Source: a bacterium (GTDB taxonomy: Bacteria > UBA8248). From it: a DNA stretch of 64,000 nt. Below are positions 40,935-54,240 of this stretch, in pieces. Where the stretch lies: assembly GCA_965204535.1 (NCBI GenBank), contig OZ241996.1, forward strand, positions 448,001 to 512,000. Direction: 5' to 3'. Every line of letters starts with the position of its first letter. Positions within the stretch are counted from its first letter, which is position 1. The notes under the pieces were generated by a model. That model was not told the DNA's origin. It saw only the letters and a list, made by a program, of their open reading frames with translations, and did not search any database. Both the position numbers and the translations under genes were made by a program.

Positions 40935-41783
40935 ATGACGCAAACCGATGGTTCCACGCTCGTTTCGGCGGCGTGGCTCGCTGAACGCCTGGATAATCCG
41001 AATCTCCACGTCATCGAGGTGTCCTCCGCGGGCGACGACGCCTCCTACCGCGAAGCCCACGTGCCGGGCGCGCACTGGTGGTTCTGGAAAGGGGCGCTCT
41101 GGCACGAGACGGACCGCGCGTTCGCAGCACCCGAAGCGCTGGCCGAACGTCTGGGCGGGATGGGCGTCGGGCCGGATGATGAAATCGTCCTGTACGGCGA
41201 GCCGGTGCAGTTCGGAACCTACGCCTTCTGGGTGCTCAGGATGGCGGGTTTTCAGAACCTGAAGCTGCTCGACGGCGCGAAGAAAAAATGGATGGCCGAC
41301 GGGATGCCCGTATCGAGCGATGCGCCGGAAGCCGCCGCCGTCGCACACACCGCGCCGGATGGGGGCGAGGTCTTAAGCGTGGGCAGGGACGATATTCGAG
41401 ATAAGCTGGGCGCGCCGGGCAGGGTGCTGCTCGACGTGCGCTCGCCCGAGGAATACAGCGGCGAGCGGGTGATGCCGCCTCCCGGTTTCGACCACGGGGC
41501 CGAGCGCGCGGGGCGCATACCGGGGGCCGCGCACCTGTTCTTCCGGGAACTGCTGAACGAGGACGACACCTATAAGAGCACGGAGGAGCTTGCCCGGATT
41601 CTCGGCGGCGCGGGCGCCACAGGTGATGACGAGATAGAACTCGTCCTCTACTGACGCTTGAGCCACCGGGCCAGTCTGGTCTGGTTCGCCATGCGGTATC
41701 TGCTGGGCCATGAAGACGTGAAGATTTACGACGGCTCCTGGACGGAGTGGGGGAGCATCGTCGGTTTCCCGATTGAGAGATGA
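40935..41783 (+). CDS. Tandem-domain sulfurtransferase/rhodanese; catalytic residue encoded by TGA (probable selenocysteine)
   Basis: Frame continues past TGA 41652-41654 as LVLY-U-RLSHRASLVWFAMRYLLGHEDVKIYDGSWTEWGSIVGFPIER; TGA sits at the active-site Cys position; C-terminal YDGSWTEW rhodanese signature. Confidence 0.85.
41665..41685 (+). promoter_or_regulatory. Candidate bacterial SECIS hairpin
   Basis: ACCGGGCCA-GTC-TGGTCTGGT stem-loop (two G-U pairs) starting 11 nt after the UGA; loop G at +20. Confidence 0.55.
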
Positions 41784-41799
41784 GGGAACCCCGTAAGTC

Positions 41800-42600
41800 G
41801 GCGCAGGGACAACCCTTTCGGGTTGCCTTTCAAGGAGAAAAGGCCGACCCCCCGCGAAGGGCCACCGGAATGACGGGCGTTGTCCTGCCCTCTGTGGTTG
41901 TCTTTTTTCGGACAGGCACAGAGGCCTCGGACAGCCCCGACGAGGGGCTGTCACTACATCTCCCTCGCCCCAGAACCAACCCCCCCTACCCCCCCTTGTC
42001 AGGGGGGTAAGAAAGACCCCTCCCCCGACAAAAAAGGATCAACTCCCCCCTTGAGGGTCTGGCTTCCCGAGGGGAAAGCCAGACGAGGAAGCCGAACCGA
42101 CAGGTGAAGGCTGACTCGGTGGGGGGACATGCCACTGAAAAAACTCCCCCCACCGAATCGCTTGCGGGCTTCGCCCTTAGCTCTTCGACTCCCCCTCAAG
42201 GGGGGAGTGAAATACCTTGGGGGTCATTGCTGACTGATGAAGGAAGAACCAACGCAGGGGGGCTTTTCTTCCACCCCCTCGTTGGCGGGCATCGCCTTTT
42301 TTTACCCCCCTGACAAGGGGGGGTAGGGGGGGTTGCCTTTCAGGGTGAGGAGGTGAGCACGACCGGTCGGAAGAAAAAAGGCCGACACCCCGCGAAGGGC
42401 CGGCGGAAGGCGGGACTTGCTGCGACACAATCCCTGAGGTCCGAGGCCCGGCCGAGCGGGGCGCCGGCCTGTCTGCATGACGAAAACAGGGGCCGCCCGT
42501 TGTTCCCCCTCCCGGCTCGAGGACTCAAACTCATAACCGGGAGCGGTACAGTTTGCTCCATCACGAGGGAAGCAACCAACGGGCAACCCCCTTTTCGCTC
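41800..42600. repeat. Nested REP/MITE cluster in a convergent intergenic region
   Basis: C/G-tract arms at ~41978-42007 and ~42305-42334 enclosing CCCCCTCAAGGGGG-type units; AAAAGGCCGAC.CCCCGCGAAGGGCC occurs at ~41838 and ~42377. Confidence 0.75.
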
Positions 42601-42628
42601 TACTTGAGATTTGCTGCCCGCCCGGGCC

Positions 42629-42648
42629 CCGGGGCGGTGAAGCCCCGG
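42629..42648 (-). terminator. Hairpin after the lipoprotein gene (possible terminator)
   Basis: CCGGGGC-GGTGAA-GCCCCGG about 30 nt after the stop; no clear U-tract. Confidence 0.35.
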
Positions 42649-42675
42649 AAGCCTGAGGCGTCGTGCTCTTCGCTG

Positions 42676-44421
42676 CTACTGCTTGTTCACGCCGAAGGCG
42701 CCGACCATTTTGCCGGCCGTGCTGAACTCGGAATAGAACGTGCCGGTCCCGACCTTCGGAATGCCGCCGTCGTCATTGTCGTAGAGCGTTCCGGCCCACT
42801 CGCCGGAGGCGGCGGCGGCCGTCCCGCCCATGGTCCAGACCGTATCGTTGCCGTCCTGGTCTGTGCCTGTCCGAGTAATACCCCCGGTGGGAGCAACGGC
42901 AGCTTCCTTCAACTCGACGGACCAGTCACGCGACATGCCGTCCGCGCCCATGAACTGGTCGATGGTGCCCGTGATCGAATTGTCGGTGAAATCGGCTTTA
43001 AGCGTTGCCCTTGCGGTGAAGTGGCCTGCGTCGTTCGTTCCCCCGGTCGCGCTGTAGAGCGCGTACTTGCCGGCGGCGCCGCCCATGTAGGTCGCCGTTC
43101 CATTCAAGGTATCGAGGGCAGCGGCAGCCGGGACGGCGCCCTTGGTATCCGCGAAAGCGCTCGCGGTGAATTTGCTGCCGTCCTCGGACTTGTGGATCCA
43201 CCAGCCGTAGGAGGCGTAGATCGCGTCCGGCGTGCTCACGACCCTGGTGTTCGGATCGGCGGGCTTGAAGTTCCAGCCGGTAGCGCCTGCCGTAAACGTG
43301 TTGTCGGTCGCCGAAGCCACGGTGCCAAGCTGGAAGCCGTCAGCAGCTACCCGTGAGGCGCATATGGTATCGCCGGTGGGCGTGCAATACCAGGTGCCCG
43401 ACACCCCGTGATAGCTGCCGGCAATCATCACGCGCCGACCACTCTCCGCTAGCTTGAAGGTCTTGACCCCGGCACCCTGGTCGAAGCTCGGACTGGCGAT
43501 CCGCTTCTGGGTGGGCGCGTCGGTCGTCGAGTCGACGACCAGTTCTCCTTCATCATTCAACAGGTACTCGAATCCCGTGGCTGTCGCACTGCGAGTGCCG
43601 AACGGCTTGCCCTGCGTCGGCTCGTCCACGTTCGAGTAGACGACCGCTTCGTACATGCCGTCGTCGTCGGGCTCGGCCGTGTACTTCTTGCCCGCCCAGC
43701 CATGCAGGGCGGCTACCGTCGCATCCTTCTTTTCCGACAGAGCGACGGGATCGGCGGTGCCGATGCCCACCATGATGCGCGTGTCGACGGCAACGCCGGT
43801 GTCGGGAACGGCGGCGTTGTTGTACGCGGCGCCCCGCTGGTCCGCGGTCAAGGCGGTGTTAGCGGCCGTCGTTGTGGTGGCATCGCCACTCGGCGCAGCG
43901 ATGCCGGTATGGAGCTTCATGGCATCCGCCATCATGGCCGCATCCTTGGCCTTCTGCGCATCGTCCATCGCGGTCATGCGGGCCGTCTTGGCGGCGGCAA
44001 GCTGGGTTTCGAGCGCGGTGACGGTTCCGGTGTTCGCGGTTTTCTCCGCCGCCGGAACGTTCTCTGCCGCCGCGATCGCCGCTTTCGCGGCCGCGACCGC
44101 CGCATCGGCGGCGCTCACCTCGGCAGCGTCCGAGTCGTTGTCGACCTTGCCTACCGCCGTCTGGGCGGCCGCCAGTTTCATCTTGATGTCTTCACGCTCC
44201 ATAGCCAATTTCTCTGCCGCCAAATCTGCGGCTGAAGTGCATGTCTCATTGTCATTCCATCGGCCCCCCGCGTCCTCGCACGCCATCTGCGAGTCATCAG
44301 GCATCTCGGCCGGCGCTTGCGTAGAGCCGCCCCCGCCGCCGCAGCCGGCCAGCGTCAGCGCGAAGACCGCCGCCAGCGCGAAAGCGTAAAGCTTGTTTAT
44401 CGGTTTCTCTCTGAACATCAT
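42676..44421 (-). CDS. Surface lipoprotein with Ala-rich coiled stalk and TbpB-like C-terminal beta-barrel
   Basis: Lipobox LAGC followed by GGGGGS; Ala/Lys/Glu helical region; C-terminal GTATYMGGAAGKY..FTARATLKADF..GTIDQF..GKMVGAFG; AGGAGG RBS. Confidence 0.75.
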   Translation of the reverse strand: MMFREKPINKLYAFALAAVFALTLAGCGGGGGSTQAPAEMPDDSQMACEDAGGRWNDNETCTSAADLAAEKLAMEREDIKMKLAAAQTAVGKVDNDSDAAEVSAADAAVAAAKAAIAAAENVPAAEKTANTGTVTALETQLAAAKTARMTAMDDAQKAKDAAMMADAMKLHTGIAAPSGDATTTTAANTALTADQRGAAYNNAAVPDTGVAVDTRIMVGIGTADPVALSEKKDATVAALHGWAGKKYTAEPDDDGMYEAVVYSNVDEPTQGKPFGTRSATATGFEYLLNDEGELVVDSTTDAPTQKRIASPSFDQGAGVKTFKLAESGRRVMIAGSYHGVSGTWYCTPTGDTICASRVAADGFQLGTVASATDNTFTAGATGWNFKPADPNTRVVSTPDAIYASYGWWIHKSEDGSKFTASAFADTKGAVPAAAALDTLNGTATYMGGAAGKYALYSATGGTNDAGHFTARATLKADFTDNSITGTIDQFMGADGMSRDWSVELKEAAVAPTGGITRTGTDQDGNDTVWTMGGTAAAASGEWAGTLYDNDDGGIPKVGTGTFYSEFSTAGKMVGAFGVNKQ

Positions 44422-44649
44422 TTAGCGAGTCCTCCTGAATCAATAGAAAAAGGGATTTTCAGTGAATTTCCGGCTTTCTCCGATTAACCTCCTTTCGTGA
44501 GCTTTCATTTCGGGCCTTCACAAACTGATTCGTATTTTCGGCCGCCTGAAACGCGGCGGAGTTGAACCCTTTCATGCTCCGGGCCGGTCGTTCCGCGAGA
44601 GGCGGATTCCTGCGGTATGCGTCCACCTCGAACCCGGGCTGGCGGCCGC

Positions 44650-44840
44650 TAATTACTGTTATCAGCCCCCAGAAACCCCGTTTTCCGCCGGAAAACCCGT
44701 TTCGGGGCGTATTCGGGCCGCAAACAAGCGAAAGATGAGCGAAAAAAGGCGCAAAACGGCCTCCGAAACCCCTCCGGGGACCCCGGAATTGCGCTTGACA
44801 TGGCCGTGAGAGGTGTTATATTTTCTGATAACAGTAATTA
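44650..44840. promoter_or_regulatory. Candidate invertible promoter (inverton) flanked by 16-bp inverted repeats
   Basis: TAATTACTGTTATCAG (44650-44665) is the exact reverse complement of CTGATAACAGTAATTA (44825-44840); the enclosed segment holds TTGACA (44795) and TG-N-TATATT (44817) facing +. Confidence 0.75.
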
Positions 44841-44849
44841 TCGGACTCT

Positions 44850-45472
44850 AGAAAAGCCGTTTCGGTCGGAATCGACCACCGCCGTCATGCCTGCGCGGAC
44901 ATATATGTCCGACATATATGCGGATGACGGTCCTTCTATGTATCGCCGAACCCCGGAATGACGATGGAAAGCCGCACCCAGGGTAGTGGGCCGTTCGTGA
45001 ACGGCCCTTGCCGGAGAAACGGGCGGTTCGCGAACCGCCCCTACGAGGGTTGTTGAAAAACCCTCCGGTGGGGAAGGAATCCCGATCATCGAATTGTTCA
45101 CCGTAGGGACAGGCCCCTGTGCCTGTCCGAGGCCCCTGTGCCTGTCCGAGGTCGCAACCTGTCCCTACGGATACCTCGCCCCAAAGGCAACCCCCCCTAC
45201 CCCCCCTTGTCAGGGGGGCAAGAAAAAGCAAAACCCACTCAGCTCGGCGGGGGCGCATCGCCTTTTTATACCCCCCTGATAAGGGGGGGTAGGGGGGGTT
45301 GGTTTTATGGGATTTCCCTTTCAAGGGGGTTGCCATTACCCTCTCAGGGGGTTTTTCAGCAAGCCCCTCAAGGGGGGAGTGAATCCTCTCTGCCGAATAG
45401 CAAACAAGTCTGAAAGGGGGGTAGGGGGGCTGTCCTTTATCCCCCGAGGAGGGGGACTTTTCCAACAACCCT
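44850..45472. repeat. Nested REP/MITE cluster
   Basis: CGGACATATATGTCCG, GGGCGGTTCGCGAACCGCCCCTAC, GGGTTGTTGAAAAACCC (45048)...TTTTCCAACAACCC (45472), reverse-orientation C/G-tract core. Confidence 0.8.
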
Positions 45473-45522
45473 CTCAAGGGGAGATGATGGAACCCTCGTA
45501 GCGTATCACAAAGACCCGTGCA

Positions 45523-46503
45523 TCATTTCACGGGATAGCGCGGCTCCTCTCCCCGCAGGACGCGCAACACGTCGGTCGCCGCCTTTCGCCGCATGTCCTC
45601 CAAAGCCGCCGTGCTGTACCACGCGCTGTGCGGCGTGACGCGGCAGTTGGGAAGGGCGAGCAGCGGGTGATTCGGACGCGGGGGTTCAACTTCCAGCACG
45701 TCGAGGCCCGCGCCCCGGATGGCGTTTCTCTTTAAGGCATCGGCCAGCGCATTCTCGTCCACGAGTTCGCCGCGCGCCACGTTGATCAAGACGGCGTCTT
45801 TCTTCATGCGCTCGAGCGCTTCGGCGTTCACCATGCGCCGTGTTTCGGATGTCAAGGGCGCGTGCAGGGAGATGTAGTCGGATTGCTCCCAAATACGTGA
45901 GAGCGCGGCGTTCTCGGCTTCCAGCTCCTCGAAAGCGGATTCTGACGCGAAAGGATCGTGCGCGATGACGCGCATCCCGAAGGCGCGCGCTTTTCCGGCG
46001 AGAGCCGCGCCGATCCTCCCGATTCCCACCACGCCCAGCGTCGCGCCCCGGAGCGGGGCGATGGGCCGGAGCGCGGCGATGCCCCAGCCGCCTTTTTCGA
46101 CTTCCGCCATTCCCCCTTCGAGTTTTCTGGCGAAGTAGAGGATGAGCGCCATGGCGTGATCCGACACCTCATCGACGCAGTAATCGGGTACGGAGGTGAC
46201 CTGGATACCCTTCGCCCTGGCGGCTTCCAGGTCGACGTTGTCCACGCCCACGCCGCCGCGCGCGAGAATCTTGCAGCGCTTTAGCTGAGAGACGACCTCT
46301 GCGGTGAAGGCGGGAATCGAGCCGATGATGACGCCTTCCGCCTCCGCGCAGAGTTCGACCAGGGATTCAGCGTCCGCTCCCATGCCCAGGCGCAGGCGGG
46401 AACCCAGAGGCGAGAGTATTTCCTCCTCGACCGTGGGGGGCCCGAAGCGCGTTCCGGCGACGGCGATGAGCGGGCCGTCTTTTGCGGGTGGACGTAAAAC
46501 CAT
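45523..46503 (-). CDS. D-isomer-specific 2-hydroxyacid dehydrogenase (CtBP-like)
   Basis: RGGVGVDNVD, VPDYCVDEVSDH, GIGRIG, INVARG, TPHSAWYS. Confidence 0.9.
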   Translation of the reverse strand: MVLRPPAKDGPLIAVAGTRFGPPTVEEEILSPLGSRLRLGMGADAESLVELCAEAEGVIIGSIPAFTAEVVSQLKRCKILARGGVGVDNVDLEAARAKGIQVTSVPDYCVDEVSDHAMALILYFARKLEGGMAEVEKGGWGIAALRPIAPLRGATLGVVGIGRIGAALAGKARAFGMRVIAHDPFASESAFEELEAENAALSRIWEQSDYISLHAPLTSETRRMVNAEALERMKKDAVLINVARGELVDENALADALKRNAIRGAGLDVLEVEPPRPNHPLLALPNCRVTPHSAWYSTAALEDMRRKAATDVLRVLRGEEPRYPVK

Positions 46504-48083: not shown

Positions 48084-48201
48084 ATTCCACGCAAACGGGA
48101 TTTTATGGAATGATTATAAGACAAGGCGGGCGTGCGTCTCCAGCGCGTCCGGTATTTTTCATTCACCGCGCGGGCCGGGACGGAGGACGTTCCTCCAGGC
48201 G

Positions 48202-48419
48202 GGGTTGTTGAAAAAATTCTTGAAAGGGTAATGGCAACCCCCTTGAAAGGGAAACCCCATAAAGCAACCCCCCCTACCCCCCCTTGTCAGGGGGGTATAA
48301 AAAGGCGATGCGCTCCCGCCGGGCTGAGGGGGTTTTGCTTTTTCTTACCCCCCTGACAAGGGGGGGTAGGGGGGGTTATTCCCTTGGAATTATTGGCAAA
48401 GACTTTTCCAACAGGCCCC
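48202..48419. repeat. MITE-like element
   Basis: GGGGTTGTTGAAAAAA...GACTTTTCCAACAGGCCCC; core nearly identical to the 3.3-kb copy. Confidence 0.85.
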
Positions 48420-52009: not shown

Positions 52010-52180
52010 GAAGAAAAACCCTCCGGCTGCGAGTCGAAAAATCATCTGAAATCAAGAAAATCCATCATGCGTCATGAGGGGGCGGCGGGCAAGCCGGTTC
52101 CCGCCGCGCGATTCAGGTGATATTCTCCAATAAATGTTCTCATGACGAAAAAAGTGATTTCTCCCGGAAAAGGATTTCTC

Positions 52181-53311
52181 ATGCCCCCCACCCAGAGCAT
52201 CGGAACGCCGGTGCGTGAAATCGAAACGCCCGCCCTGATAGTCGACCTCGACGTCATGGAGGAGAACCTCGCCCTGATGGCGAAGCGCCTGGAGGGAACG
52301 GGCGTCAGGCTCCGCGCCCACGCCAAGACGCACAAGAGCCCCTGGCTCGCGAGAAAGCAGATGGCGCTCGGCGCGGTGGGGGTTTGCTGCCAGAAGGTGA
52401 GCGAGGCCGAGGTGATGGTGGAGGGCGGGGTCGGGAACGTGCTCGTGAGCAGCGAGGTCACGGCCGCCTCGAAGCTCAGGCGTCTGGCCGCGCTCGCGCG
52501 CCATGCGAACCTGATGGTGGTGGTGGATCACCCCCAGGGGGTGGCGATGCTCTCAGAAGCCGTGACGGCGGCGGGAGCGGAAATCGGCGTGCTCGTCGAC
52601 GTGGACGTGGGCCAGGGCCGCTGCGGTGTCGCTCCCGGAGAGGCGGCGGCAGAACTGGGCCGGCGCGTGGAAGCAGCGAGGGGACTCGAACTCAAGGGGA
52701 TTCAGGCCTACCACGGCAAGGCCCAGCACGTGGATGGATTTGCTGAGCGACGCGAGGTCTACGCAGACGCCATCGCCAGGATGCGCGAGACGGTGGACGC
52801 GTTCGAGGCCGCCGGGCTTCCGCTTGAGGTCAGGAGCGGCGGCGGCACGGGTTCATGGCGCTGGGATGCGGAATCGGGCGTGCTGAACGAGCTTCAGGCG
52901 GGGAGTTATTTGTTCATGGATTCCCACTACGGCAGCATCGGCGGCGAGAATTCCGAAATCTATGACGACTTCAAGCCGAGTCTTTTCGTGCTGACGACCG
53001 TGGTGAGCGCGACCGGCCCCGGCCACGTGGTGATGGACGCCGGCCACAAGGCGCTTTCCTCGGACAGCGGGCTGGCGCCCTGCCTCGAACTCGAGGGCGC
53101 CGTGCACGCGCGGGCTTCGGATGAGCACGGCGTACTGGAGCTGTCCCCGGCATCGAGGCGGCCCGAGATCGGCGAGACGCTCCTGTTCCAGCCCAGCCAC
53201 TGCGACCCGACCATCAACCTCTACGACGTCTACCACGGCGTCCGCGGCGGAATGGAGGAGGGTGTCCTGGAAGCCGTGATCCCCGTCGCCGCGCGCGGCT
53301 GCGTGTGGTAG
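52181..53311 (+). CDS. DSD1/D-threonine aldolase family PLP enzyme
   Basis: TPALIVDL, LRAHAKTHK, GGGTG, ELQAGSYLFMD, SDEHG, PSHCDPT. Confidence 0.9.
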   Translation: MPPTQSIGTPVREIETPALIVDLDVMEENLALMAKRLEGTGVRLRAHAKTHKSPWLARKQMALGAVGVCCQKVSEAEVMVEGGVGNVLVSSEVTAASKLRRLAALARHANLMVVVDHPQGVAMLSEAVTAAGAEIGVLVDVDVGQGRCGVAPGEAAAELGRRVEAARGLELKGIQAYHGKAQHVDGFAERREVYADAIARMRETVDAFEAAGLPLEVRSGGGTGSWRWDAESGVLNELQAGSYLFMDSHYGSIGGENSEIYDDFKPSLFVLTTVVSATGPGHVVMDAGHKALSSDSGLAPCLELEGAVHARASDEHGVLELSPASRRPEIGETLLFQPSHCDPTINLYDVYHGVRGGMEEGVLEAVIPVAARGCVW

Positions 53312-53351
53312 GTCAGCCCCGACTGAGAAAGGAGGGGCTGCCGACCGATGA

Positions 53352-53702
53352 GGGGCTGTTGAAAAACCCCGCGTCGGGGGTATTGTTTTTATCCCCTGGC
53401 AAGGGGCTGTTGAAAAACCCCCTGAGAGGGGAATGGCAACCCTCTGAAAGGGAAACCCCATAAAGGCAACCCCCCCTACCCCCCCTTGTCAGGGGGGTAT
53501 AAAAAGGCGATGCGCTACCGCCGAGTTGAGGGGGGTTTTGCTTTTTCTTGCCCCCCTGACAAGGGGGGGTAGGGGGGGTTGCCTTTGTCCCCTGACAAGG
53601 GGAATTAGGGGGTTGAACGCGACCACGGAGGGAGCGTTCGCTCCCTTGATAAAGGCTTTTTTGGCAACCCCGCATGTGTGGCGGACATATATGTCCGACC
53701 TG
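53352..53702. repeat. MITE-like element with a duplicated left end
   Basis: GGGGCTGTTGAAAAACCCC at 53352 and 53403; C/G-tract core; GGCTTTTTTGGCAACCCC end; CGGACATATATGTCCG. Confidence 0.85.
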
Positions 53703-53715
53703 CGAACCCAGGCCC

Positions 53716-54240
53716 TTACGAGGGCTTTCCGAACGTGGCCACCCTGTCCACGCGGCACTCGAAGAGCACGCGCTTCTCGTCGATGGCAGGGTCCCTGAGC
53801 GCATAGGGCGGGTCCGCGCCCGTGTATTTCGTCCAGATGCGGTCGAGCTGTTCGGTCGCCCGCTCGCCGCCCGGGCCGTCTTCGTGTATCTCGTTCACCA
53901 CCGTGCACTTGATGCTCATCCAGTGGTAGGGGTTTTCGGGGTTCACGAGGAGGATCGTGAGCTGCGGGTTGTTTCGTATCCATCCGCACTTGGGCCGGTG
54001 CGAGGCCGTGTTCACCAGAATGGTGTCGCCCTCGTAGTCGAACCACATGGGCGTCATGTTCACCCGTCCGTCGGGGCCGATGAGGCCCAGCGTGACCGTG
54101 ATCGGCTTGTCCAGCAAATCTCGATAGATGGGGTCCAGATCCGCCAGACCGCTCGCCTTCGCCCTCTCGCCTATGGCGAACTGGCCCTCCTGCAGACCCT
54201 CGGACACGTCCTTGAACTTGGCTACGGTGAATTCCGCCAT
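53716..54240 (-). CDS. PPOX-class (pyridoxamine 5'-phosphate oxidase-like) protein
   Basis: PDGRVNMTPMWF..VNT..K..NP..DPENPY-like (NPENPYHW) pattern. Confidence 0.75.
   Translation of the reverse strand: MAEFTVAKFKDVSEGLQEGQFAIGERAKASGLADLDPIYRDLLDKPITVTLGLIGPDGRVNMTPMWFDYEGDTILVNTASHRPKCGWIRNNPQLTILLVNPENPYHWMSIKCTVVNEIHEDGPGGERATEQLDRIWTKYTGADPPYALRDPAIDEKRVLFECRVDRVATFGKPS

Follow-up and report, generated by a model that had tools for sequence, protein, structure and literature searches.

A candidate invertible promoter upstream of a lipoprotein gene

Does the AT-rich inverted repeat upstream of a predicted surface lipoprotein gene in an uncultured bacterium enclose a promoter that can be turned around, and if so, where would the necessary enzyme come from? 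The repeat lies in a 64,000-nt stretch of contig OZ241996.1 (positions 448,001 to 512,000; assembly GCA_965204535.1), hereafter the window, to which all coordinates without a contig label refer. An earlier description made from the letters alone (the original prediction) proposed an invertible promoter captured in the OFF orientation, and this proposal fits the 17 copies of the element, their matched spacers and the flipped copies in the genome and its relatives described below. We consider it highly likely that the element is an invertible promoter, now OFF, which is flipped in trans by Cre-like recombinases encoded beside eight sister cassettes, turning the lipoprotein gene on. The window element is very probably a phase-variation switch, and that this particular copy flips is what we infer.

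The exact 16-bp inverted repeat is located at 44650-44665 and 44825-44840, with a gap of 159 bp, and both sites read as arm-CAGTAA-arm, as originally described, the palindromic core extending for just 7 bp per arm. The left recombination site core spans 44646..44665 on the minus strand (outer arm 44646-52, spacer 44653-58 with CAGTAA on the minus strand, inner arm 44659-65) and the right core 44825..44844 on the plus strand (inner arm 44825-31, spacer CAGTAA 44832-37, outer arm 44838-44). The repeat is not a product of chance, because AT-rich exact 16-bp inverted repeats with a gap of 100-300 nt number nine in the whole genome and seven of these belong to the cassette family. If crossover occurs within the spacers, the flipping piece would be the 173 bp between them (44659..44831), which are 83-98% identical among the 17 copies. 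This segment contains a sigma-70-type promoter match on the plus strand (44795..44822; TTGACA at 44795-44800, 16 nt, TATATT at 44817-44822, TG extension at 44814-15) that scores 11 out of 12 and points away from the lipoprotein gene, in agreement with the earlier description. The promoter scan yielded two matches sharing the same −35 element, compared to 0.6 ± 0.7 in shuffled sequence, and found no sigma-70 match on the minus strand within 42300-45600. On the plus strand, the first open reading frame (ORF) that we judged from the translations to be a real gene begins at 52142, consistent with the predicted lack of a plausible gene nearby. The left site and the lipoprotein start codon are separated by a conserved leader of ~224 nt (44422..44645, minus strand; ribosome-binding site at 44430-44436), which would form the 5′ untranslated region in the ON state; an Rfam scan gave no relevant match in the leader and two sub-threshold matches within repeats.

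A family of cassettes with matched spacers and two orientations

The same anatomy recurs in near-identical cassettes throughout the source genome (denoted G000, with contigs C1 and C2; G001 and higher numbers denote other genomes, and L labels the fetched loci). A search with nhmmer identified 17 copies (17 rows at E-values of 1e-36 or better; three rows at 0.12 or worse were dropped), so that the genome contains 34 recombination sites arranged as 17 inverted pairs. The inner segments average 89% identity and TTGACA is present in all of them. The left and right spacers are identical within each of the 17 copies, and 13 different spacers are found among the copies; when spacer partners were shuffled 200,000 times, the number of matches never exceeded 9 out of 17. 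In two copies (C2:567352 and C2:2391234), the inner segment is reversed with respect to the conserved outer flanks, so that the promoter faces the target gene.

The pattern extends to related genomes. The cassette region has matches in 16 of the 22 other genomes of the genus, in some cases through the leader only, and we scored 46 copies from 13 of these other genomes, limited to fetched loci rather than all copies. Spacers match within 45 of the 46 copies (44 according to the script, with one added after a one-base register correction), bringing the overall number of different spacers to 25, and five of the 46 are flipped to the ON orientation. The strongest single result is a pair of orthologous loci, G002:C1:2672528 and G000:C2:2207094, which have the same flanks and align in a plus-minus-plus fashion, one being ON and the other OFF; the spacer is CAGCAA at both sites of the former and TAGCAA at both sites of the latter. 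No enzyme gene is found beside either of these loci, which supports action in trans. Both orientations do occur in related genomes, including at one orthologous locus, with the window locus itself having no orthologue in the seven relatives fetched.

The matching of spacers within copies along with their drift between copies would be explained if inversion proceeded across a one-base spacer mismatch and were followed by replication, yielding daughters with the same spacer at both sites, a pattern expected only if inversion continues. Different spacers would also lower cross-talk between loci, allowing the copies to switch largely independently. Cre itself is described as accepting ~84% of matched non-loxP spacers (PMC11260471).

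Two observations concern the assemblies. One copy spans both ends of contig C1, with the break inside its spacer and a 4-nt overlap (L136, L137), and the genes flanking this end-to-start join are adjacent in one of four relatives; the break could reflect mixed orientations in the reads. In G002, the two flanks of one cassette (L054; G002:C1:1302000-1315000) map to distant places in G000, which is compatible with rearrangement at or near the cassette.

A Cre-like recombinase linked to the cassettes

An intact tyrosine recombinase gene is located just outside the OFF-side site in eight of the 17 copies; it is truncated in two and missing from the remaining seven. Six of these seven, including the window copy, have one common replaced flank and therefore look like a non-autonomous subfamily. 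In the window copy, this flank (44845..44978, plus strand) retains the first half of the terminator stem found in other copies and then diverges; it folds no better than shuffled sequences (z −0.72), and neither a terminator nor a recombinase gene was found beyond it. Lacking an adjoining recombinase, the window copy would need one in trans. The predicted trans-acting tyrosine recombinase that serves other loci as well fits both the eight sister cassettes carrying the enzyme and the enzyme-less pair found in opposite orientations. A full-length enzyme was found in 12 of the 23 genomes of the genus, all of which contain the cassette; in G005, cassettes are present and the enzyme is fragmentary.

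The eight intact recombinases are 74-96% identical over the core, with catalytic residues retained in all. A close orthologue, P0001, has Cre or Cre-derived proteins as the top 17 of its 18 PDB matches (best E-value 6e-13), and its R, K, H, R, W and Y residues align with what we take to be the catalytic positions of Cre. By comparison, P0001 scores 48 and 35 bits against the XerC and XerD models (cut-offs of 335 and 330) and 18-21 bits against models of tyrosine-type DNA invertases (cut-off of ~221). The Fim enzymes are short His-type tyrosine invertases, unlike the cassette enzyme, and Mpi is a serine recombinase. In these sequence comparisons, the recombinase is Cre-like, and the cassette system is probably Cre-type.

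The sites point in the same direction. When the right site is compared directly with native SloxP, which comes from Shewanella sp. ANA-3 plasmid 1, 24 of 34 nt agree, as do 18 of the 20 central nt, that is, over the 6-bp arm core and the 8-bp centre, whereas the outer arm halves are not palindromic, unlike those of the 34-bp 13-8-13 lox sites. This comparison supports the lead from a blastn search, in which SloxP was one of 12 records (five of them from Shewanella) at a non-significant E-value of 5. The recombinase is 27-29% identical to two tyrosine recombinases encoded near SloxP, either of which may be SCre. Thus, SCre/SloxP and the Cre/loxP system of phage P1 share with the cassettes the likeness of the site core and an enzyme in which, on alignment to Cre, Trp occupies the position of the second His, whereas the cassette sites form inverted pairs around a promoter. 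In the accessible portions of the sources, SCre/SloxP and Cre/loxP are described as engineering tools, without natural promoter inversion (PMC3082901, PMC10250229).

Taken together, these features outline the following mechanism. The enzyme would bind arms of the CCGATAA/TTATCGG type and exchange strands across the 6-bp spacer, and the resulting inversion would direct transcription from the promoter across the 224-nt leader towards the lipoprotein gene. In the OFF state, the promoter would fire into an intrinsic terminator, recognizable as a hairpin with 7-8 consecutive T residues after the OFF-side site in nine of the 17 copies, and the recombinase gene past the terminator would be expressed from a second promoter-like site of its own, present in eight of the 17; the window copy has neither of these features.

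A 233-aa gene with a C-terminal, Xis-like HTH_17 domain (L067:4486-5187, minus strand; G000 C2:2398488-2399186) is convergent to the recombinase position in seven of the 17 cassettes, and among the surveyed loci of related enzymes its occurrence is confined to the other genome that has 16 copies. By its sequence, the protein is a possible directionality or mobility factor.

Targets of the cassettes

The target gene in the window (42676..44421, minus strand) encodes a lipoprotein of 581 aa with a lipobox (LAGC), a Gly linker, a helical stalk and a beta-rich head ending in a predicted C-terminal TbpB/fHbp-like barrel. The AlphaFold2 model has a mean predicted local distance difference test score of 87.8 and displays the helical stalk followed by the beta-rich head. 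Foldseek searches initiated with this model retrieved fHbp, NHBA, TbpB, HpuA and hemophilin with E-values of 1.7e-6 to 7e-5, at weak target-based template modeling (TM) scores of ~0.2-0.5 and 10-20% identity; matches in the Atlas were all below 0.9 and serve as leads only. Pfam and NCBIfam searches gave no match in the protein, TbpB_B_D included. The predicted model thus supports a TbpB/fHbp-like fold, and the TbpB-like target of the original prediction is borne out, with the low TM-scores just given. The protein resembles the Slam-dependent lipoproteins (TbpB, fHbp, NHBA, HpuA and hemophilin) in its lipobox, flexible linker and predicted C-terminal beta-barrel, and differs from them in its long helical stalk, low identity and low global TM-score. 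The genome contains one Slam gene (C2:795287), not adjacent to the window cassette, and the lipoprotein would reach the surface via this Slam.

The original prediction suggested a search for similar sites before other lipoprotein genes, and 13 of the 17 cassettes have paralogous lipoproteins with one signal peptide as their targets. Two further target proteins have a similar barrel-type motif at their C-terminal end, RTX calcium-binding repeats being present in one of them, and another is a 1,250-aa Calx-beta/cadherin-like protein. One cassette (L072; G000 C2:1587500-1594500) precedes genes for an MpaB/Lcp oxygenase and then an MMPL transporter, rather than a surface protein. The target of the copy at C2:376844 (C2:376594), a paralogue 90% identical to the window lipoprotein, carries a frameshift in the run of Gly codons after the lipobox, which represents slippage, decay or a sequencing error.

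Alternative explanations

Several observations weigh against the switch interpretation. No molecule with the window copy flipped was seen among assembled contigs, the only material covered, and an orthologue of the window locus is absent in all seven relatives fetched. The window copy lacks the OFF-side terminator. Overall, 56 of the 63 copies are OFF, so that the rate of switching may be low or its direction biased. The spacers insulate the loci incompletely, given that four spacers are each common to two G000 copies, and G002 contains four copies with the spacer CGTCAA as well as one copy with a true single-base spacer mismatch (L059). It should also be noted that neither kin genomes nor paralogous copies represent independent samples. 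Finally, Logan contigs from four runs contained no opposite-strand joint at the sites; these contigs come mostly from other strains or copies, near-identical pieces being present in one run only, at a depth of 2-3, and the first comparison was swamped by repeats. Because such contigs drop rare forms, we regard this null result as uninformative.

These observations bear most directly on the possibility, unlikely in our view, that the inverton family is real but the recombinase-less window copy is fixed in the OFF state or flips too seldom to be of consequence, leaving its lipoprotein as a silent spare. The absence from this copy of both an enzyme in cis and a terminator is what would be expected in that case, as is the OFF orientation of all six copies of the recombinase-less subfamily in G000 and, with the limit just given, the lack of a flipped junction in the Logan contigs. 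However, the spacers of the window copy still match, five different matched spacers occur among the six copies of the subfamily, and the lipoprotein reading frame is intact. Moreover, an enzyme-less copy that is ON in G002 and OFF in G000 (L064) renders trans action at such copies plausible.

Less likely still, the sites could serve in attachment or resolution of a small mobile cassette, the orientation of which is set at insertion and the spacers of which are matched through copying or conversion of the whole cassette. Resolution of replicons is the usual task of Cre-type enzymes, the cassette is inserted at the window locus, and the Xis-like HTH_17 gene accompanies seven of the 17 copies. 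Nevertheless, the sites are inverted and internal to the cassette, with conserved sequence on both outer sides, and at one locus with the same flanks the inner piece alone is reversed; copying of whole cassettes cannot yield 25 different matched pairs.

We attach very little weight to the notion that a repressor, which could be the recombinase-like protein itself, uses the repeats as operators, with no inversion of the DNA taking place in living cells: although the −10 element and the 13-bp arm of the lox-sized right site overlap in the window copy, so that a bound protein could block the promoter, an asymmetric operator centre need not match its partner 173 bp away, yet 62 of 63 do, flipped copies exist, and the catalytic residues are kept in all eight enzymes. 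Flipping by the host XerC/XerD pair at dif-like sites can practically be dismissed, notwithstanding the TAA-N6-TTA core common with dif and the two Xer-like genes in the genome, given that the arms contain no half site of what we take to be the XerD type, the genome has a dif-like site elsewhere, and the cassette is accompanied by a Cre-like gene of its own. The XerC/D dif-type identity assigned to the sites in the original prediction is accordingly rejected, considering also the arrangement of 34 sites in 17 inverted pairs, the enzyme scores far below the Xer cut-offs and the resemblance of the core to SloxP. The probable chromosomal dif site, one of two matches in a half-site scan, is located at G000 C1:~1063720.

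Relatives in other phyla and comparison with known systems

Enzymes related to the cassette recombinase were found in other phyla. A relaxed scan for matched site pairs was positive at five of 26 recombinase loci and at none of 121 control windows; the five comprise one close relative, one possibly mis-binned 4-kb contig, one doubtful 36-bp pair and two convincing loci from Latescibacterota. In three loci of the latter phylum (L098, L099 and L100), an inverted site pair lies ~200-510 nt upstream of the Cre-like gene, with spacers matched within and differing between species, and in L098 and L100 the promoter faces a TonB-dependent receptor gene on the far side of the site pair. No site pair was found within 3 kb of the enzymes from Binatia, Poribacteria, Terriglobia, Vicinamibacterales, Longimicrobiales or Rhodothermales.

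By analogy, the cassette would work like the mpl system of Mycoplasma penetrans and the invertible promoters of Bacteroides (PMC2268961, PMC10502178, PMC3599477, PMC12398969). The mpl genes (P35 family) are likewise dispersed surface lipoprotein genes, each with its own adjacent invertible ON/OFF promoter, and one tyrosine recombinase serves many loci (PMC2268961, PMC10502178, PMC3599477). Similarly, the invertible promoters of Bacteroides (Mpi, Tsr) and fimS of Escherichia coli (FimB/FimE) are promoters between inverted repeats that toggle surface structures through local or global recombinases (PMC2268961). The cassettes differ from mpl in that the enzyme is Cre-like and represented by eight intact paralogues, no two of them in the same cassette, the host bacterium is uncultured and GC-rich, and the cassettes insert at new loci and also precede genes for proteins other than lipoproteins. 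The mpl repeats are similar in having a TAA-N6-TTA core, the centre of which varies, a likeness for which a motif search came back blank.

Our literature search, which left most subscription papers outside its reach, found no paper that deals with a natural Cre-type invertase or with invertible promoters of sponge symbionts; related enzymes or invertons may be included in the supplements of two papers (PMC10250229, PMC11602134). Most known cases of promoter inversion come from gut commensals and pathogens, whereas the putative 17-switch system described here resides in an uncultured, probably sponge-associated bacterium: its relatives are labelled Nitrospinota and host DNA occurs in a sponge metagenome. 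If the proposed mechanism is true, Cre-type recombinases would have a natural role as invertases. Furthermore, the cassettes provide new pairs of enzyme and site, including 25 spacer variants that occur in nature, which could be used in studies of orthogonal recombination, and spacers that match within and differ between copies could serve as a read-free signature of active invertons in assemblies.

More tentatively, the family might be viewed as a modular cassette for phase variation that is mobile and relies on a Cre-type recombinase, and in which the 6-bp spacer acts as a locus barcode, much as in engineered heterospecific lox sites. A shared pool of enzyme might then flip up to 17 surface-protein switches independently, giving a combinatorial coat to a sponge symbiont, with autonomous and non-autonomous copies spreading and capturing unrelated targets, and with a related version controlling the TonB-dependent receptor of Latescibacterota. 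This broader scenario is speculative, and we regard it as possible rather than probable.

The insertion locus and its neighbourhood

The whole insertion, comprising the lipoprotein gene, the switch and palindromic repeats, spans 3.7 kb (41776..45500), has an imperfect direct repeat of ~19 nt at its ends and is flanked by genes for a rhodanese and a 2-hydroxyacid dehydrogenase. The corresponding locus is free of the cassette in all seven relatives examined, six of which have the flanking genes close together and one a different insert. The window copy thus appears to be a non-autonomous member of the family that arrived recently at its locus. Nests of palindromic repeats resembling repetitive extragenic palindromes or miniature inverted-repeat transposable elements, many with copies genome-wide, border the inserted cassette (41800-42600, 44850-45500, 48200-48400 and 53300-53800).

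The neighbouring rhodanese/sulfurtransferase gene (40935-41783, plus strand) contains an in-frame TGA codon (41652-41654) at the position expected for the catalytic Cys. The TGA is kept in all seven relatives and the genome encodes a selenocysteine tRNA (tRNA-Sec); the gene is likely to encode a selenoprotein that ORF callers truncate.

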